Shown here in pieces: positions 7,700-58,456 of a stretch of 64,000 nt of DNA. Origin of the DNA: Hormiphora californensis. Lineage: Eukaryota > Animalia > Ctenophora. The stretch is from the NCBI GenBank assembly GCA_020137815.1, contig CM035355.1, positions 7,192,001-7,256,000 on the forward strand, given 5' to 3'. The translations under genes and the position numbers were made by a program. The notes beneath the pieces are model-generated. The model was not told the DNA's origin. It saw nothing but the letters and a program-made list of their open reading frames with translations, and made no database searches. Every line of letters begins with the position of its first letter. Position 1 is the first letter of the stretch.

Positions 7700-9690
7700 T
7701 GGGGGGAAATAAAATTTTGGTCACGGGGGTAAGGGGTCAAAAAGGGGAAGTATTTTAAAAGAATCGTTTTAAAAATTTTTGGAAAAGATAAAAGAGGGGA
7801 AAAAAAAAAAGAAAAAAAAATTTGAACTCTGCAAAAGGGGCTTTCTCTTCACTACAAACCCCCCTTCTTCTTAACCTGCTCCGGGGGACCCACTGCATTC
7901 TAAATTAAATGGTTATTATTTAATCAATATAAGGCTTGGGTGGGGGGTTATTAAAAGGGAGGGGTTAAAAATAGGGAATGTTAGGGGGGGTAACTAACTA
8001 AAAACGATAATTAAAACCTTTAAAAAAGTGAAAATTTTATTAAAAGACCAAAAGAATAACAAATTTTTCATCATGCTTTGATTTCATTATAATTCTATAG
8101 AAAATCTAATCGTGAATGTAAACACCGATAAATAATGGAATAAAATATCTGTCTCATCTCACTAAAAACCCTTGACTTCAATGTTCTTCTTTACTTCTTA
8201 CTTTTCATCAAATATATTGCTTCCCTCTTTTTAGTCCTAACAAATGGCACTGATGTGCTAATATCAAGTCCTGCAAAAACATAAAACTTCTCAACAACTT
8301 TTTGATGGGATTTCTCTCCCTTTGAGGGTTCCACTAGGAGGATTCGTAAACGGGTTTTTCAAAGTAGGTTTCTGTTTTACGTGTTCCTTGCGGGACCGTA
8401 AGAGATTCACACTCTTTTCCCAAAACCCGATAAACAAGGGGGGGTCCCAAAAAACCCAAAATATTTTTTTGCCCTTTGGTTTTGGGGGCTCCACCCATGT
8501 TTTCTTTGCAAAAAGCTTGATCCTTTGACAGAAAGAAAGGGGGCAGGGAAAACATTAAGAATTGCAATGATTCTTTTTAGAAAATAATTTGGGAACAATT
8601 TTAACTTAGAAAAAGGTTATTGCCAAACCCAATTTTTATAAAAAGTGGTATTAATCCCAATGGGAGCTTTTTTTAAAAAATAAAGTGAAAACCCATCCCC
8701 CGGGGAAAAAATGATCCCGGTAGAGAGGTTTTATAAAATTTAATTTAAGGAAAAAGGAATCCAAATTTTTAATTTGAAACCGGGAACAAATGCAACCCTA
8801 ATAAATTGTCGGATTGTTTTAAAAAATTTGGGTTTAAAATAAATAGGGAAAAGAGAAAAAAAGAAAAAGAGAGAGAGGGGAGGAGAAGAAAAAGAAAAAA
8901 GAAAGAGCGGAGAAAGAGAGGGGGGAGAGAAGGAGACAAATAGAGAAGGGGATACATAGTGGGGGATGGGAAGAGGGAGAAAAAGAGGGGGGGAAGAGAG
9001 AGAAAGAAGAGGGAAGGAGAGAAGAAAGAGAGAAGCAAAAAATAGGGGGGGAAAAAAAGTAAGAGGGAAAACCCCCCTCCTCTTACCCTTCTCGGGGTTT
9101 TGGGGTTTACCCCCTGGTTCCCCTTTCGCCTCTTTTTCTTTTCCTCTTTTCTTTTATTTCCCCCCCCTCTCTCTCTTTTTCCCCTTTTTCCCCTTCTTCT
9201 CTTTTCTCTTTTTTCTTTTTTCTTCCCTTTGTTTTCCTTTTCTTCTTTTCCTTCCCTTCTTTACCTTAAAATTTTTTGTTCCATTTCCTTCCAACCCTTC
9301 TTAAAATTTCCCTTCCCTCTTTTCCTCACCCCTTTTTTCACTTGGCCTTTTTAAAAAACCGTGTTGGAAAACCTTCTTCTCTTTTAATTTTTTCTTTCCT
9401 TTTTTCCCACGCCATTTTTCCAACTTCGTACCCGTACAAAAAAAGACCCCCCCCCCCCCCCCCCCCCCCGAAAAAACTTGCAAATTTACCATCACCCTTA
9501 ATTTTCCCAAAACCAATCCCCCAAAACCCCCCCCCACCCCCCCCCCAAAACCCCCCCCCCCCCCCCCCGTACCTTAATTTTTTTTTGTTTCCCATTTCCC
9601 CCTTAAACAAATTTTTAAACATCTATAGGCCTCTTCCCCTCCCCCGGGGGATTTTTAAACCCCAATTATTGTTAACCATGAACTTTCAAG
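7700..9690. other. Low-quality (homopolymer-garbled) assembly segment, probably hiding the last ALG12 exons
   Basis: Almost all runs are inflated homopolymers. A PGG-like remnant (cf. ALG12 NYPGG) is visible near 9640 on the minus strand. Confidence 0.75.
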
Positions 9691-9706
9691 TTAACCATGA
9701 ACTTAC

Positions 9707-10215
9707 AGGTAATGTTAACTAGAAGACATCCCATGGTAGCAAGTTTAAACACTAGACCCTTGTTCCAAAGGCTGGCAATAAAACTGGCTGCTGCCACATT
9801 TAACAGGGGAACCGCATACAGCACAAATCTGAGAGAGGAATCTTTGAATCAAGGAGTAGGTCGTTAAAATGCAAAACAGAATGGGTCCGATCCCTAATTA
9901 GTATTAGACAATTTTGACCGGTGATCTAAGTTTTCACATTGCACCGTTTCCGCCGGTTACAGTGCACTGTGAAAACTTAGACCACTGCAAAACACTAGTA
10001 ATTATAAAGTAAAATACCGTTGCAGTGGTATGTGAAAAATTAGACACTTTCTAGTCACACACACAGTATAAACATTAAGTCACTACTGCACACGCCCTAA
10101 CCCTTATCTTTTCTTCCCCTCTGCAACTATAGGTCACGTGATCGTCACGTGATGGCACCACCCCAATGAGCGTCCTGCATCTGCTTTCCCTCTCTGCCTT
10201 CGATTCTCTCTTTCC

Positions 10216-14440: not shown

Positions 14441-14563
14441 ATAGTTAGATATCCCGAAACCAAAATAATACCGTTTACTAGTCATATCGGTTTTGTTTGA
14501 TATTTATCTGTGCTCGTACACTCGGATAGATAAGAGAAAAGAGACGACGGAGAAAAGGTAGAT

Positions 14564-14622
<59 letters not shown>

Positions 14623-14800
14623 GAGAGAGCGGCAGAAAACAAGAGAGCAATCGCACAGTACATCTTGTCGATTAGATCATACAAAACGTCTTGTGGATTG
14701 TTATCTACTAGCTAGCTTGCTCTCGAAAAACAAACATCCTTCACTTCTTCGTGTACATTCCTTGCCTTCGTTTTCCTATAGTTCAGACGATGGCTTGAAC

Positions 14801-15408
14801 ATGACAGGTAGACTTTGTTTGCTGTTTCTTCTAGGAGCGACACTTACTGGAGCAACAGCTTCAGAACAAGTTGACATTGTTAGTGCAACTGCAAGGACAG
14901 ACTATCTTGAATCAACTGCAAATGGACCCGAGAAAGCTATCGATGGTAACTCAGCTACAGTATATCATTCGGATCATAGTCAGCCAGAACAGTGGCTGAA
15001 ACTGACATTGAAGGAACCAACTTTAGTCGAAAATGTTGTTATCATTAACAGGTTCGTTAATTTGATTAAAGTAGATTAATATATTGGGAAAAGTGGCCAT
15101 TTGTTCAGTAATTTAACCCAAGTTCTTCTTTTAGACGCGATAGCAACTTAGTAAGAGATCGTCTCCTTGGTACAAAGGTTTCTCTAATCGGAGCAACAAC
15201 TGAAACGACATGCGGGACTATCAACTCTGTCAATGACGTGTTATCTGAAGAAGATCAAACCTACACGATAACCTGTCCAGTTGCCGAAAAAACACTTTCG
15301 GTTCTTCTTAACGATACTGTTATGGAGTCATGGGATGGGAAGTCGGGCTGGCTGATCATGAATATAGCAGAAGTGATGGTGTACAAAAAATTAAAAATTA
15401 GTAAGTAA
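14801..15408 (+). CDS. Secreted F-type lectin / F5-8 type C (discoidin-fold) protein, copy 1
   Basis: Signal peptide MTGRLCLLFLLGATLTGA, PEKAIDGN...YHS...QWLKL, an intron at ~15051-15134, then RRDSNLVRDRL (H-x27-R-x-D-x4-R, resembling the fucolectin motif), CG, and MNIAEVMVY. Confidence 0.8.
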
Positions 15409-19172: not shown

Positions 19173-20546
19173 AAGGTCGGAATGGTCGGAATGGACACAA
19201 ATATAAGGCTATATGCAGATGATATGAAAATCTGGCGTATCATTAAAAGTAGCGGAGATAGTCTCCAACCTGACATAGATAGATTGTTGATCTGGAGCGA
19301 GAATAACAAAATACACTTTCATCCTGATAAGTGTAAGCTCCTTAGATGTTCCCTAAAACAAAATCCTGTACATTTAACATACCATCTGGGAAGCACACAA
19401 ATAGGTCCTAGTCAAACGGAGACTGATCTGGGTGTTCTGACTACAAATAAACTTTCGTCAACCCACCATCAGAACAAGCTCCTATCAAAATCTTCCCAGA
19501 GGTTAGGTCTAGTGAGGAGAACGTGTTCTGACCTAGTTCAGTCGCAGAGAAAACGCAAAACTCTCTTCATTAGTTTAGTAGGGTCACTATATGAACACTG
19601 TAGCGAAGTATGGCGGCCCATTTCTGCATCTAGTATTGAAAAATTTGAAAAGATGCAAAAAAGGGCCGTAAAATGGGTATTCAATGAATTGGAGTGTAGT
19701 TACAGCAACGAAGTGTACGTAACTAGGCTCAAGGAACTTAAGATCCTACCCATGTCTTCTAAGTTCCTATATAATGATCTTAAAATGTTCCATAAGATAC
19801 TTTACAAGCTTATACCAATAGAATTCCCCCCTTACATGAGACGTTTTGACCCAACTGTTGACAATGACCGACCACCTACAAGACAACAAATCAACAAAGA
19901 CGCGACTTACGTAGTGTGTGATGAGCGCCCTAGAATAGATGTTTTTAAAGATTCATTTTTCTACCGTACCCACATAGAGTGGAATTCCCTACCGCATGAT
20001 ATTCGTAGCATTAGTGACCATGTGATATTTTCCTCAGAACTTAAGAAGCATTTGTGGAATGCATCTAGTATCCAGCCTTCTGTCTGAATTTTTTCCTTAT
20101 CATTGGCGGATCACTTGGCAACAATTGTAAATGGATATAATATGTTTATTGTTTTTAGGAGTTTGAGGTCATAGAAATTGTTGATGGGTTTGGAGTTGTG
20201 TTCGAAATGTTTGAAACTTAAAAGTTGTTGCCCGGTGATGTGCCAATACCAATTGACACAAATTGACAGTTGACACTGACTGGGGTAGGGAGGGTTTGGG
20301 TTTGGAAGGGTTACTCCGGAACTTATTAACCTATTAACTTAATTTATTACTATTAAACCAATATATATTTCTAATCGAGTGTGTATATAGCTAACATGAC
20401 GTATTTTTATACTACATTTTTACACTTTATCTAAATTTAAGACGTAAGCACTCATGCCTTGGGCATCTATTTTAATAGAGAGTCTGTCGGGTTTTGTATG
20501 AAGTATCAATGTATCTTTATATTTTACCTTTTTCAAATCAAATCAA
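19173..20546 (+). mobile_element. 5'-truncated CR1/L2-like LINE (RT C-terminal half, ORF to 20087)
   Basis: LYADDMKI, DIDRLLIWSENNKIHFHPDKC, ETDLGV, SFFYRTHIEWNSLP, and a (TCAAA)n tail. Confidence 0.88.
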
Positions 20547-20616
20547 AACAAACATCCTTCACTTCTTCGTATACTCCTTGCCTTCGTTTTCCTATAGTTC
20601 AGACGGTGGCTTGAAC

Positions 20617-21224
20617 ATGACAGGTAGCATTTGTTTGCTGTTTCTTCTAGGAGCGACACTTACTGGAGCAACAGCTCCAGAACAAGTTGATATTGTTAGT
20701 ACAACTGCAAGGACAGACCATTATGAAGCTGGATATGGACCCGAGAAAGCTATCGATGGTAACTCAGCTACAATGTATCATTTGGATCGCAGTCAGCCGG
20801 AACAGTGGCTGAAAATGACATTGAAGGAACCAACTTTAGTCGAAAATGTTGTTATCATTAACAGGTTCGTTAATTTGATTAAAGTAGATTAATTATATAT
20901 TGGGAAAAGTGGCCATTTGTTCAGTAATTTAACCCAAGTTCTTCTTTTAGACGCGATAACAGCAGAGTAAGAGATCGTCTACTGGGTACAAAAGTTTCTC
21001 TAATCGGAGCAACAACTGAAACGACATGCGGGACTATCAACTCTGTCAATGACATGTTATCTGAAGAAGATCAAACCTACACGATAACCTGTTCAGTTGC
21101 CGAAAAAACACTTTCGGTTCTCCTTAATGATACCGTTATGCAGTCAGACGATAAGAAATCGGGCTGGCTGATCATGAATATAGCAGAAGTGATGGTGTAC
21201 AAAAAATTAAAAATTAGTAAGTAA
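20617..21224 (+). CDS. Secreted F-type lectin-like protein, copy 3 (diverged loops)
   Basis: Same exon structure as copies 1-2, with substitutions DHYEAGYG, MYHLDRS, RRDNSRVR and QSDDKK. Confidence 0.8.
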
Positions 21225-33817: not shown

Positions 33818-49845
<16,028 letters not shown>

Positions 49846-52387: not shown

Positions 52388-55300
52388 ATGCTCAGAAACA
52401 CAACAAATCTCGAGTATGCCATTCCCTCGGAAATCAGGGACGAACAGAAAACATCACTCTCGGATGCCCCACCCTTAGGCTCTGAGAATATCTTGGATTT
52501 TCTTCATAGAGACATCATAGGCAACGATGCGACCTTCAAAGGTCCTTTCGGCGTTCGCAAGATAGGTAAGCATGCAACATGAAGACACATTTGTCTCTCT
52601 CTCTCTCACATACACACACACTCTTTCTCTCTCAGCTCACTCCCTTTATCTTTCCGTTGTCTTTTAACAGGAACGCACACGCCGCATACATACAGCCACC
52701 ACCGGCCAATATATATTAGTACTGCATTATTAATAGTTAATACACTGTGCGTCCTATTTGTGTACCCACACACTATTTTCAGTGTATAGCGACTGGGCCG
52801 CATCAGGCCGTTCACTGCGGTTCATTAACGACTACATAACCAGTGAAGTGCTACCCTGGTATGGGAACACCCACTCCATGGCTAATGTCACCGCTACTCA
52901 AATATCAATGCTGCGAGAGGAGGCACGACAAATTGTGAGGTATCCTGTTTCAGCAGTGTGTGTGTGTGTGAGTGTGTGTTGTTTAGACAATTGTACAGCT
53001 TTGTGTTTTCCGTGTTCTACAATACCTCGCTATCTAAATATTCACATTTCACTGAATATAATTGTGAGGTGTGTAGTTCCCTTGTTGTTGTTTTAATTGC
53101 CCCCCCCCCCCACCTCCAAATCACACCTGTATAAGGGGTTCAGGAGAGGGATCACATTACCTCTCTCTCTCCTGAGCTCTAAATATCATTTCTCTCTCCT
53201 GCAGGCACACAGTGAACGCTAACTCAGACAAAGACAGTGTTATATTCCACGGTAATGGCACAACTGGGGTCACCTCTCTACTGCGGCACATCATTGATGT
53301 CCCCTCGGCCGTATTTCTAGTTGGGGAGGAGGCCCACCATTCCCTCTACACACCCTGGAAGGACCACAGTGATAACGTGCTAATGATACCTGACTCGCCG
53401 GATAGGGAGGAAATACTGGAGGGTGTCCTCTGTGATATCAGGGCAGCTAACCCAACTGTACCTGTGTTTGGATGTTTCGGAGCGGTCAGTAATGTGACTG
53501 GAGCTGTATTTGATGTGGATTCCCTAGCACGGATACTCCACAAACACGAGGCGTTGATTGTGGTGGATTATGCGAGTGGAGCCCCCTATCTTGACATCAA
53601 TATGAACCCAACGGATGGGGTGAGTTATAAAGATGCGATTGTATTCTCAGCTCACAAATTCCTTGGTGGAGTTGAGAGTCCCGGGGTTTTAGTGGTGAAG
53701 AAGGCCCTGTTTAGGGCTAGTAAACCCATGGTTAGTGGTGGTGGGACCGTGTTCTATGTCAAGGAGGATGAGACAACTTATTTCAAGGCACCAGAACTGA
53801 GGGAGGAAGGTGGAACTCCAAACATTTTGGGAGCTATCAGGGCTGGGCTGGCTTGCTACGTGAAGTTGAGAGCAGTTGGACCTGTTAGCAGGGATCGGTG
53901 TGCACGGAGTGTTGAGAAATTTAAAGCTATGGCAGCGGATAACTCTAACATTATTCTTATTAGTGATGAAGGACGTGAGCGTGTTCCTGTTTTCTCCTTC
54001 CTGATCCGACATCACCATCTCTTTCTCCATCACAATTTCGTAGTGGTCCTGTTGAATGATTTGTTTGGAATCCAATCCAGGGGCGGGTGTCTATGTGCAG
54101 GGTCCGTACGTTCAGCGCCACCTTGGAATTGACACACCCCTCAATAACCGTCTCCTGGCGCTACTCTCCGAGGACTCCAAATTGGATCGGCACCATCTGA
54201 GGCGGACCCGGGAGTACAGTTCGTATGAGGTGTTTCGGCCGGGTGTGGTTCGGGTGTCATTGTGTTACACCACACCTGCAGAAGAGGTAGATTATGTGAT
54301 CCGGGCTGTTGAGATGGTGGCGAGGGATGGGTGGAGGTTGTTACCATTCTACAGGTGTAACAGTGAGACAGGGGAGTGGCAGCATCTCAACAACCTCCAG
54401 TTTAATGATCGAAGGTGGTTATCCCATGTGAAGATATCTGAGGGTGGGGTTAAGTGGAAGACATTTCAGAAGGAAACCTCGCCCGATTTTGATAGCTGTT
54501 TAGTGCAAGCACATAAAGTGCTGGAGGGAGTTAAATCTTACCCTGGATCCTCTCAGGAGGGATTGTTTGCGGAGTGTGATGATTTGAGGTGGTTTTTGTT
54601 GCCTAGCGACGTGGTTACGGAAGTAAACCACTCCCAACCACCTGTCACTTCATCACCTTTCCAACCAGGATCACTAACCACCTGTCCATTGGTTGTGGCA
54701 AAGCGACAGGAGGATCTAGCTACAATACTGAGATTCTGTAGACAACCACCTAAATCTCAAGTTACTAGCACTGATATCACATACACCAGGGGAGCCGCTG
54801 GTGTGTTTTCATTGGTACGGTACATTGTGAAACTTCTCTCTGCCTCATGGTCTTGGTGGGTTGGTGATGTTGGCAAACCTCCAGCGATCACTAGTTACAC
54901 AACGCCAGCTAAAACTGATCACGTACGTGATGAGGAAGGGGTGAAGAAAAACAATGGTGTAGAGAAGGGTGCTACAGCAGTGAAGGAAAATAGAGAGGAA
55001 GCGAAAGTTTGCAAGATCAGAAAACCGCCAAAAGCTGCTCCAGGTAAGGGTGTAATCACTGCATCACTGTAATACTGCATCACACTGTAATACTCTAAAG
55101 TTCTCCTAAAGTTCACCATTTTGAAAAATTCTTTACAAACTCCATTAGCTATCTCTATCCCTTCCAGGAAAAGCTCGCTGGCATGCCCCAACTAAGTCCA
55201 TACTGAAGCCCATGGTACGGGCTATTGAGGAGTTTCAGATGATCCAGGATGGAGATAGGGTATTAGTGTGTTTGTCTGGCGGCAAAGACTCTCTCTCCAT

Positions 55301-58300
55301 GCTCCACTCCCTACGACAGTACCAGTTTATTGCCCGCAAAAAAGGTACGTTTTTTTAGTTTTGGTCTAAGCTTCGGTTGACATGTATTATAATCGTTAAC
55401 CACCCTCTACCCTCTTCAGTGAGTTGTTATATAGAACTTCATTCCGCTTCATTATGCCATATTTGATATGTTAGAAAATGACAAGTAAAGCGCATATATA
55501 TATATAATTTATCTCACAAAGACTGCCCTCGGGGGGGGATCCCATGGCATACTTTGGTATACTTTGGCACTTTCCACAACTTTTTCAGCGATTTTCCATA
55601 TACCAAAGTATACCAAAGTATACCAAAGTATACCAAGGTATACCAAAGTATACCATAAAAATTTTGAAAAAGGTAAAATTTAAGCGATAAGTTAACATAA
55701 ATGACTAAATTTGTAAAACTACATCCTTATTTATTTATAAGTTGGTAATATAACGCTTATTAAACCGATTTTTACGTTTTTGTTACATCATCCGGCTAGT
55801 GCTCAAGGCTTGCCGCTCAGGGTTCGATTCCCGGTGAAGGCAATTGTTGAAAAATTTTTGGAGACTTTACCAAATACTATTTGAACATTTTCTTGACTTT
55901 TTAAAAGTTTTTTTATCATACTCAAATGGGTCCCAATTTGTCAAACCCCAGTTTTCTGACTCACCATTTTATAGGTAATATTTTCCCTCGATTCTATGAA
56001 TTTAGCCTATTTAGCACCATTGTCCAATTTTATGAGTTAAGAAAGTTTATATAAAATGTTTTAAAGCCTTAACTGTTGTAAATTAACACTTTAAAGTACT
56101 TTAAAGTTATTAAAAAGATATGGTATACTTTGGTATACTTTGGTACTTTCCACATATTTTTTTGGGATTTTCCATATACCAAAGTATACCAAAGTATACC
56201 AAAGTATGCCATGGGATCCCCCCCCTGCCCTCTCACAAGAGACTGTCTTACCTCAACGTACTGAGTCTCAGAAGCTCACTGTATGTGTCTTAGCCAAGTC
56301 CTATTGCCCACCCACTCGTCCCTCATCCTAGTCTTTAGTTTTTACAGTGCAGTCCCTACAAACTGTGAAACTTGCTGAATGTTTAGATTTGCCTGTGCTA
56401 AATATGTTTGGGGTATGACTGAATCTTGAGCTGCAACGTAGCTCAATATACAGCCATGTGTGCGATGATATAATCACGTACATGACAACCTATAATGTAG
56501 ATATATATTCATGCATCATAAAACTAGATCTAGTAAAGGTTTTCTGTACGTATCTCTGTAACATTTAAATCAGATATATATAATCTGCTCTGTACGATCC
56601 AACACTATATTCATGTTATCGTATGATCGGTACTACTGCTCTTCATTTAGCATGCATTAAATGTCATGCGCTTTATAGTATTTTGAACTTCAAATTTAGA
56701 TCTAAGATCTATCTAAAAACTATAGTTACGAAACGTCTATACCTCTTTTATCTAAACAGGTCACCACACATCCTATTCAGCAGTACCTCAATTCAAATTC
56801 AATTTCAGGAGTGAATTTCACCCTAGGAGCGGTGACAGTCGATCCAATGACTCCCACTTACAACCCTGCACCACTTATTCCTTACATGGAGGAGTTGGGA
56901 GTGGAATATCTCTTCGAACGACAGGGTATTCTGGCAAAGGCGGAGGAAACAGCCGAACAAATATCAAGTATTTGTAGGTAAGGAACACACTCATTTCATA
57001 ATAATCAGTGTCTTGGCTCTCATCCAAGGTTTTTTGTCAACATAATATTTACCGAACGATCTCACACCTCCTTCTTTCCACACTGGAATAACTGCTAGAA
57101 TAACTTGAGGGCCTCCAGTTATAATTCTAGCAAACGCCAGTTATTCTAGATCCAGCAATTACACCCCTCTTACCCTCCGGTTATTCTAGCGAACACCCCT
57201 CTTATCTGGCAGTTATTCTAGATCTAACAAACACCCCTTGAAGTCTACTTTCCTACAGTTACTGTAGCCCCTCTCTCTTCCTACAGTTACTGTAGCCCCT
57301 GGCCCTCTCTCTCACTTCCTACAGTTACCGTAGCCCCTCTCTCTCACTTCCTACAGTTACTGTAGCCGGATGAAGCGGGGAAGGATATACTCAGCAGCCC
57401 GGAGAAAGGGATATAATGTCGTAGCGATGGGGCAACATCTGGACGATTTATCTGAGAGTTTCTTCATGTCCGTCTTCCATAACGGACTTTTGAGGTAACT
57501 ATGTGGCGTGGTCATTGTCGTTACCTACCTAGGACCTCCCACCGCGTGATCAGATTTAGAGCCTGATCTCAGATCTGTTTATGCTGATGTACATAGTATG
57601 TAGTGCTAAACACGTCAACGTCTAAATCCTATTTCTACACGATGAGCTATATTTTACACTTTGAATCTTCCTAGGCTATAATATGAGTCAATTTTAACAG
57701 ATCATATCTGTTTCAAGTAAAAATTTCTCGCCCTCTGTAAAACAATGAAAGTAACAACTCTCTCTCTCTCTCTGTTCAGAACAATGAAAGCCCATTACAC
57801 AGTCACCGAAGAAGACCTCAGAGTAATTCGACCCCTCATCTACGTGAGGGAACGAGACCTAAGAAGCTTTGCCGAGAGTCGGGCATTACCCGTTATTGCA
57901 GAGAACTGTCCGGCGTGTTTTGAGGAACCAAAAGAGAGGCACCGGGTTAAACAGCTTCTTGCTCAACAGGTATTCAGTCACACGCTATATTTTTTGTGGC
58001 TCGCACCGCATTTTTTCATTAAATGACAGCGCTTTGTGAGAGTTCGATAGATCAAGCAACACAAATACGGGTTTCTTCAATTTGGCAAAGGGGCCCTCTG
58101 TCAAATTGAAGAGACCTGTATTTGCCAAAGGGGTTACCCATCTATCAGAGCTGGGCTTGGTATTATATCTCATTGGTTGTGATTGATTGGTTATCAGTGG
58201 TAAGATCTGAAATCGATTATAAGATGGACATCAATTACTCGATTGTAGGTTACTATCACTATTACAGGAGTTGCTATTTCCACGGCTAGCAAACAGTCTC

Positions 58301-58456
58301 CAGCGAGCCATGAAGCCACTATACTCCAAAGCCAGGGTGGGGATGGAATCAAGACCTGGTATGGACCAGCAGCTGAGAGGAGAGCCATTATCTGGTGATA
58401 TTACTGTTAACGGTGATGGAGATACGGATGATGAGATGTTTCCACAGGGTTGCTAG
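52388..58456 (+). CDS. Fusion of class-V PLP cysteine desulfurase-like domain and TtcA-type (PP-loop, 2x CxxC) tRNA 2-thiolase; one-base frameshift at ~54100
   Basis: Eight exons (52388-52566, 52783-52939, 53205-55043, 55168-55344, 56809-56977, 57357-57494, 57780-57969, 58268-58456): YSDWAASGR, YGNTH, HHS, FSAHKFLGG, EEGGTP, RGGCLCAG; then LSGGKDS, CSYCSRMKRG, GQHLDD, VIRPL, CPAC. Confidence 0.9.
55531..56225. mobile_element. Foldback DNA element with G8/C8 termini and 10-bp CCAAAGTATA arrays
   Basis: GGGGGGGGATCCCATGGCATACTTTGGTATACTTTGG...inverse, with a 7-8-bp TSD (C)TGCCCTC. Confidence 0.85.
57249..57368. repeat. Four tandem copies of a 3' splice site plus exon start (TTCCTACAG|TTACTGTAGCC)
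   Basis: AG ends at 57258, 57286, 57324 and 57356; only the last keeps the frame. Confidence 0.85.

Follow-up and report, generated by a model that had tools for sequence, protein, structure and literature searches.

We analysed a 64,000-nucleotide stretch of the genome of the ctenophore Hormiphora californensis (GCA_020137815.1, contig CM035355.1, positions 7,192,001 to 7,256,000 of the forward strand; hereafter the window, with positions counted from its first letter). It contains a gene whose predicted product of about 1011 residues joins a cysteine desulfurase of SufS type to a TtcA-type ATPase. Judged by its sequence, the gene is a genuine, conserved orthologue of the recently named 'IscS-TtcA' fusion family (Huang et al., bioRxiv 10.64898/2026.09.27.754811, September 2026), and its product probably makes 2-thiocytidine at position 32 (s2C32) of cytosolic tRNA with sulfur that it releases itself. 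Added here are the SufS-type catalytic cysteine, the placement of the TtcA domain in a separate 'CPAC' subfamily, the finding of no bacterial linkage between the two halves, and an enrichment of cysteines in the linker.

Structure of the fused gene

The gene runs on the + strand from an ATG at 52388 to a TAG at 58456, in eight exons; the seven introns between them are all GT-AG and measure 124 to 1464 nt. Its exons and motifs, including the lysine that binds pyridoxal phosphate (PLP), are as follows:

52388..52565, + strand: exon 1, with the ATG, an acidic N-terminal leader and the start of the desulfurase domain
52783..52939, + strand: exon 2, N-terminal part of the desulfurase
53205..55043, + strand: exon 3, core of the desulfurase followed by the C-terminal extension specific to the family and the greater part of the linker; contains the frame break
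53644..53661, + strand: FSAHKF with the PLP-binding lysine, aligned with E. coli SufS K226
54079..54102, + strand: RGGCLCAG loop, its second cysteine aligned with E. coli SufS C364 (persulfide-forming)
~54099..54102, + strand: one-base frame break in a G run, from the spliced reading frame and run contigs
54800..54859, + strand: amphipathic/hydrophobic linker segment GVFSLVRYIVKLLSASWSWW, common to ctenophore-like relatives only
54998..55024, + strand: linker cysteine in EAKVCKIRK, positioned 15 residues ahead of the end of the linker and a candidate for a tethered sulfur carrier
55168..55344, + strand: exon 4, start of the TtcA domain, with the PP-loop SGGKDS at 55275-55292
56809..56977, + strand: exon 5, TtcA domain up to the first cysteine of CSYC (E. 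coli TtcA C122)
57357..57494, + strand: exon 6, remainder of CSYC (C125) and GQHLDD
57780..57969, + strand: exon 7, with CPAC at 57907-57918 (E. coli K-12 TtcA C210/C213)
58268..58456, + strand: exon 8, end of the TtcA domain, acidic tail and TAG stop

An earlier, sequence-only reading of this DNA had proposed one spliced, genomically native gene. The exons and introns are as it described, while the assembled sequence is not one open frame, a break that it missed; both domains lie in one frame of one spliced gene once this one-base break is read through. The neighbouring genes are eukaryotic (a Nup155-like nucleoporin, two GT2 glycosyltransferases, one with a ricin-type lectin, a BACK/F5-8 protein and an EF-hand protein), and therefore the locus is not a bacterial contaminant, in agreement with the GT-AG introns. 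All the motifs that it quoted (FSAHKF, RGGCLCAG, SGGKDS, CSYC and CPAC) were located. CSYC, whose codons are interrupted by intron 5 (56973-57363), and CPAC are the sole CxxC motifs of the spliced protein. The Pfam search that it recommended gave a clear Aminotran_5 match on exon 3 (E 6.7e-26), while exon 4 alone matches ATP_bind_3 weakly (E 0.067) because that domain is spread over five exons. Alignment with fused orthologues begins at aa 18-44 of the window protein. One RNA run over the gene yielded two partial contigs only and weighs neither way on expression.

The one-base frame break

The spliced sequence of 3037 nt is not a multiple of three, and a straight reading stops at residue 421. 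The frame moves by one base in the G run at ~54099-54102, directly behind RGGCLCAG, and the protein read across the break is 1011 aa long. Base 54099 is omitted at all depth in the Logan contigs of public runs X1 and X5, and both X6 Logan contigs across the break are one base shorter than the stretch they span; X5 and X6 represent one sample from another study, and X1 is a possible source of the assembly and hence not independent. Among the best 40 of 341 variant rows, 37 of them coding, all 12 variants listed downstream of the break fall on third positions and 11 are synonymous, so the frame beyond the break is under purifying selection; upstream, 18 of the 25 listed coding variants are synonymous. 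Since the run contigs are without the base and the downstream frame is under selection, the break is very probably an assembly error. Weighing against this, several bases close to the break are not the same in the run contigs as in the window, whose haplotype is therefore possibly not among them, and Logan contigs drop rare variants.

The window haplotype could instead be a real null allele or a young pseudogene, with a protein ending at residue 420 as a truncated desulfurase. The break is, after all, present in the assembled sequence, and no aligned contig is identical to the window over 54046-54220, so that this haplotype was not directly seen. We consider this improbable in view of the four contigs over the site (one from X1, one from X5, two from X6), all one base shorter, the position of the break in a G run, the lack of any further stop or frame break in 3 kb, and the 11 synonymous changes to one non-synonymous beyond it; it would also concern one haplotype and not the species. 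Assembly error thus stays the preferred explanation. A small intron and a programmed frameshift at the break were both rejected: the listed GT..AG and GC..AG candidates of suitable length are too short for an intron or would cut conserved coding sequence (PYVQRHLG onward), and the run contigs simply do not have the base.

Desulfurase domain

E. coli SufS residues H123, D200, K226, C364 and R379 each align with an identical residue of the window protein, and C364 aligns with the second cysteine of RGGCLC, which supports the SufS-position cysteine that the sequence-only reading had placed in RGGCLCAG. Both RGGCxC cysteines are invariant in the 92 aligned fusions (92/92). On this alignment, the catalytic cysteine is the second of RGGCxC and the enzyme is a SufS-type desulfurase. 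The domain combines a short RxGxxC-type loop with the PLP lysine, histidine, aspartate, arginine and catalytic cysteine of a type II desulfurase, a class defined by its short catalytic loop in the available text of PMC10011822. An AlphaFold single-chain model of the 880-residue sponge orthologue (mean predicted local distance difference test score, pLDDT, 89.1; predicted template modelling score, pTM, 0.89; linker 595-615 below 50) best matches SufS structures (Z 33.9, root-mean-square deviation 2.0, 390 residues aligned) in structure searches that took in the desulfurase part only. Blastp of the window protein gave E values of 1e-15 for SufS and 4e-17 for CsdA, and no match to E. coli IscS at E 1e-3. 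The short loop and the lack of an IscS match at that threshold rule out a type I desulfurase of the IscS/NFS1 kind. The SufS subfamily proper is likewise ruled out, with scores of 87.1 bits for the window exon-3 piece and 105-158 bits for orthologues, far under the TIGR01979 cut-off of 475 bits.

The closest prokaryotic kin are stand-alone proteins of 550-580 aa with RxGCxC in 23/23, which have in common with the window desulfurase a C-terminal extension of ~120-130 residues. No separate SufE/CsdE partner was identified for the fusion desulfurase. Four loci of the stand-alone bacterial desulfurase were inspected; they contain ABC transporters, the pair of an Lrp regulator and an MBL-fold hydrolase, or a thiazoline-carboxylate hydrolase, and ttcA stands beside the desulfurase in none of the four. 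Around the bacterial RGGCxC desulfurases at L129:5333-8284 and L128:759-10651, the neighbours hint at cysteine catabolism: one set is an Lrp regulator plus an MBL-fold hydrolase, the other ABC transporters plus a thiazoline-carboxylate hydrolase.

TtcA domain and its bacterial relatives

The window protein carries the TtcA motifs, a PP-loop SGGxDS and two CxxC, and its CSYC and CPAC align with C122, C125, C210 and C213 of E. coli TtcA. In the available text of Bouvier et al. (PMC4081106), Cys122, Cys125 and Cys222 of TtcA are essential as cluster ligands; by a constant numbering offset, their Cys222 would be C213 of the K-12 protein. From aa 725 onward, the only cysteines of the window protein are 759, 839, 842, 929, 932 and 1011. 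Ctu1, Ncs6, TtuA and NcsA carry extra terminal zinc-binding CxxC/CxxH motifs. That type was rejected, given that these cysteines are not present, and no zinc-ribbon Pfam families were found on orthologues. The C-terminal half of the Bolinopsis orthologue scores best in NCBIfam against TtcA (209.6 bits), followed by TilS (51.7) and TtuA (45.8, cut-off 450); scores against the TtcA family NF007972 are 179-211 bits for other fusions and 195-238 bits for the bacterial CPAC type, all of these values being scores of relatives of the window protein. The sequence-only call of a TtcA type over a CTU1 type is borne out by the CxxC alignment, the cysteine content and the best-scoring family.

The TtcA domain of the window is 55% identical to its closest bacterial proteins versus 34% to E. 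coli TtcA. These bacterial proteins form the CPAC-type subfamily; most of the named organisms that carry it are sulfur-oxidising Gamma- and Betaproteobacteria. We sampled the 80 loci nearest Thermithiobacillus out of 466, a biased set, and searched the genomes of 50 of the 80: the CPAC type is present in 50/50 and canonical TtcA in 0/50. Among Pseudomonadota drawn evenly, canonical TtcA occurs in 47/151 and the CPAC type alone in three. Each of five checked CPAC genomes holds the CPAC gene and one long PP-loop gene of TilS size only. That the CPAC type and canonical TtcA exclude each other is, at the sequence level, the best evidence for the CPAC subfamily doing TtcA's job.

We found no RGGCxC desulfurase within 6 kb of the CPAC-type gene at any of the 80 loci, many of which extend less than 6 kb on one side (positive control 80/80). 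No full-length RGGCxC desulfurase was found in the 50 CPAC genomes, and seven have partial matches of SufS level, up to 69 bits. An origin from a bacterial operon with the desulfurase beside ttcA was looked for and not found (0/80 loci, 0/50 genomes, 0/4 desulfurase loci), and the fusion is without an operon precursor in this sample. Trees were built by a quick method with canonical TtcA rows and, in one of them, TilS. Eukaryotes and CPAC bacteria are separated from canonical TtcA with support 87 in a tree of 74 rows with TilS, and with support 100 in a tree of 35 rows from which TilS and 33 other rows were left out. By these comparisons, the TtcA domain of the fusion belongs to a separate 'CPAC' subfamily, apart from canonical TtcA. 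With TilS, the bacterial CPAC clade is nested inside the eukaryotes, and without it the eukaryotes (96) are nested inside the CPAC bacteria; because the two trees disagree on nesting, no donor is claimed.

Linker

The linker is conserved in neither length nor sequence; it measures 20 to 353 residues by our working definition and is predicted to be disordered. We counted its cysteines in 46 representatives, drawn from the 163 fusions, of 176, whose linker could be defined. They peak 20-29 residues before the linker end, at 38/460 positions (8.3%) vs ~2% in most other bins. The tail cysteines of ribonucleotide reductases are often spaced C-x4-C. This spacing was observed in 14/46 linkers (shuffled mean 5.7, maximum 12 in 1000) and CxxGxC in 5/46 (shuffled 0.5), with other spacings at chance level; the pattern was noticed post hoc and in related rows, for which reason the shuffles make it look more significant than it is. 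The window and Bolinopsis linkers have one cysteine at the same position, 15 residues from the end. The linker cysteine may be a built-in sulfur carrier in place of SufE. Such a role is mechanistically attractive because the persulfide of type II desulfurases sits on a loop that is short and buried, and these enzymes depend on a flexible-cysteine carrier such as SufE (PMC10011822), and because cysteine pairs on the flexible tails of ribonucleotide reductases shuttle to active sites (available text of PMC5704485). The high single-chain pTM suggests that the two domains would pack against each other, with the proviso that domain packing in a monomer model may be misleading when the enzyme is a dimer.

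The amphipathic linker segment pointed out in the sequence-only reading is real, albeit modest, and is limited to the nearest relatives. Its best 19-residue Kyte-Doolittle mean is 1.25, against a median of 0.52 over 84 linkers (97 rows, 13 of them without a definable linker), and its moment is 0.47; the window and five close relatives make up six of the ten most hydrophobic linkers. A hydropathy of 1.25 does not support a transmembrane helix. Some orthologues (P0021, P0044, P0069) end in a hydrophobic tail-anchor-like segment, while in the ctenophore-like ones it is the linker that has a hydrophobic segment; membrane attachment may have evolved more than once.

Distribution and closest relatives

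The fusion set comprises 176 sequences with all three motifs, the window's included. Listed matches among proteins with both PF00266 and PF01171 come from sponges, Trichoplax, cnidarians, molluscs, annelids, a brachiopod, a nemertean and a flatworm; from nematodes, tardigrades, chelicerates, crustaceans and insects; and from echinoderms, hemichordates, amphioxus, tunicates, the choanoflagellate Monosiga and oomycetes. No vertebrate is among the best 120 of 878 such matches, which is not a test of absence. In 169 proteins longer than 780 aa with SGGKDS and the HK motif, RxGCxC is kept in 168, the first CxxC in 165 and CPxC in 162. The window protein has the full family set of PLP lysine, RGGCxC, SGGKDS, CSxC and CPAC.

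Its closest named proteins are XP_063682977.1 and XP_063682978.1 of Bolinopsis microptera (uncharacterized LOC134817652/3), with 62% identity over 959 collinear columns and 84% in the TtcA domain. In both trees Bolinopsis is the sister of the window sequence (support 99 and 100), and its models are without the first ~90 residues that the window model has. The two Bolinopsis gene models (P0241, P0242) are near-identical and adjacent-numbered, and one is flagged low quality. Stand-alone desulfurase paralogues of 710-780 aa without TtcA occur beside the fusion in echinoderms (P0065, P0024, P0057, P0070, P0120) and oomycetes (P0031, P0037, P0047). Such a paralogue beside the fusion is noted for Aplysia in the accessible text of Huang et al.

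Proposed function and alternatives

In that text, Huang et al. map s2C32 in Aplysia tRNA-Lys(UUU), by their account its first detection in a eukaryote, and report the fused gene, named 'IscS-TtcA', from 28 mollusc species; the fusion is the TtcA match in the Aplysia genome and the named candidate enzyme. As far as the accessible text goes, the catalytic cysteine is not identified because the comparison is with IscS, and the taxa covered are molluscs, plus birds and insects for which the data are not shown. Besides this preprint, no eukaryote-specific paper was among the literature matches listed, and none was found on the Aminotran_5 and ATP_bind_3 pair by Pfam names or on a CPAC TtcA subfamily. 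The sequence-only reading had supposed an uncharacterised eukaryotic s2C pathway and unstudied fusions in other eukaryotes. The pathway gains outside support from Aplysia, where the orthologous fusion is the candidate enzyme, and the fusions are indeed widespread; 'uncharacterised' and 'unstudied' no longer apply. Selenium, which it had offered as a possible transferred element, found no support in this analysis.

In the proposed mechanism, the PLP domain would turn L-cysteine into alanine, leaving a persulfide on the second cysteine of RGGCxC; the residues are conserved and the chemistry is that of SufS. The sulfur would pass to the TtcA domain, plausibly via the flexible-linker cysteine replacing SufE, which is the weakest step. 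Three of the four CxxC cysteines, all conserved, would bind a [4Fe-4S] cluster, and C32 would be adenylated with ATP at the PP-loop and its O2 replaced by sulfur, the chemistry of both steps being taken from E. coli TtcA. Going by Aplysia, tRNA-Lys(UUU) is the likely target, and the cluster would still require the cytosolic Fe-S assembly machinery. Only tentatively do we extend this to a self-contained relay, in which the desulfurase is docked on its own TtcA and a swinging linker cysteine, often in a C-x4-C or CxxGxC pair, replaces SufE and delivers persulfide to the [4Fe-4S] cluster. The TtcA half would derive from an unrecognised second subfamily, which in sulfur-oxidising proteobacteria takes the place of canonical TtcA, and would have been fused to the desulfurase early in eukaryote evolution.

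Several observations weigh against the proposed function. The TtcA score of 209.6 bits falls short of the NF007972 equivalog cut-off of 272 bits, with TtcA still the best family, and the desulfurase half is below the curated SufS cut-off of NCBIfam (114.6 of 475 bits). The trees hold no Ctu1/TtuA rows, and many of the 50 bacterial genomes are metagenome-assembled, of unstated completeness. A linker cysteine is absent in 3/46 representatives and single in the window. The link between fusion and s2C32 is correlative in the accessible text of the preprint, with no enzyme test run.

The relay competes with a reading that we take seriously while holding it to be short of probable: s2C32 is made, and the fusion serves co-expression or a local supply of sulfide or cluster, with the linker a mere tether or cleaved. 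A linker so variable in length and predicted to be disordered suits such a role, as does the E. coli TtcA requirement for dithiothreitol in vitro, which fits free sulfide (PMC4081106). Bacterial CPAC-type TtcA works without an RGGCxC desulfurase nearby or in the genome, and cleavage or co-expression is raised by Huang et al. themselves. Arguing the other way are the peak of linker cysteines, whose distance from the TtcA domain is fixed, and the pTM of 0.89 over 880 residues, which would be above the usual for two freely moving domains. It seems unlikely, on the other hand, that the C-terminal domain thiolates or selenates something besides tRNA C32, such as another nucleoside or RNA. The CPAC type and canonical TtcA exclude each other in bacteria, s2C32 is seen in Aplysia, whose TtcA match is the fusion, and the extra TtuA/Ctu1-type cysteines are not present. 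These outweigh, in our judgement, the score below the equivalog cut-off, the low identity to E. coli TtcA, the report by Huang et al. that Aplysia's tRNA-Lys is not a bacterial TtcA substrate, and the PDB titles in which SufS acts on selenocysteine too.

Other features of the window

Intron 4 holds a MITE-like insertion (miniature inverted-repeat transposable element) at 55531-56225, outside protein-coding sequence, with 37-nt terminal inverted repeats and internal 10-nt repeats, flanked by an 8-nt duplication (CTGCCCTC). Its depth is in the thousands in three runs and one X1 contig skips it; it is therefore high-copy and polymorphic. At the end of intron 5 (57243-57378), the splice acceptor and first bases of exon 6 stand in four tandem copies, of which the last alone runs on into coding sequence; X1 and X5 contigs are without 36 nt of this array, and its repeated copies are possible alternative acceptors. 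Elsewhere in the window, two divergent GALNT-like glycosyltransferase genes whose open frames are long and poor in introns lie at 39430-43755. Two exons of a secreted F5/8 type C (discoidin) protein, at 14534-15079 and 20479-20892, are nearly identical to each other and represent a local duplication. A long low-complexity stretch at 8740-9720, purine/pyrimidine-skewed, resembles noisy long-read sequence and fits with local assembly errors. ARAGORN found no tRNA genes in the window.

Significance and comparison with known systems

The modification s2C32 was long regarded as prokaryotic; its first eukaryotic report is the September 2026 preprint, in whose accessible text the enzyme is still a candidate. 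The window locus itself is an ordinary orthologue, and the ctenophore copy extends the gene to a possibly earliest-branching animal lineage, outside the taxa described there. Testable handles are the exact catalytic cysteine, the candidate tethered sulfur carrier, and culturable bacteria with a eukaryotic-type TtcA as their only TtcA-like gene. Most worth testing are the relay by a tethered cysteine and the second TtcA subfamily.

Compared with Aplysia californica LOC101861551, as described in the accessible text of the preprint, the window gene has the same order of a CsdA/SufS-like domain, a variable linker and a TtcA-like domain in one spliced gene, and both keep the PLP lysine, SGGKDS, CSxC and CPAC. 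The window protein is shorter (1011 vs 1177 aa), its CSYC is without the extra upstream cysteine of the mollusc C-CSFC arrangement, and it has a hydrophobic linker segment that the Aplysia fusion does not. SufS and CsdA have the fold and catalytic residues in common with the window desulfurase at 26-27% identity, with a loop that reads RTGHHC in place of RGGCxC. The bacterial CPAC-type TtcA-like proteins (Thermithiobacillus, Thiothrix, Acidithiobacillus, Thiobacillus, Chromatiaceae) carry CSFC/CPAC motifs as the fusions do, but stand alone at about 245-260 aa. E. coli TtcA aligns with the window protein at the PP-loop and both CxxC and likewise has no terminal zinc fingers; unlike the fusion, it is a stand-alone protein outside the CPAC subfamily and receives its sulfur from IscS in trans.

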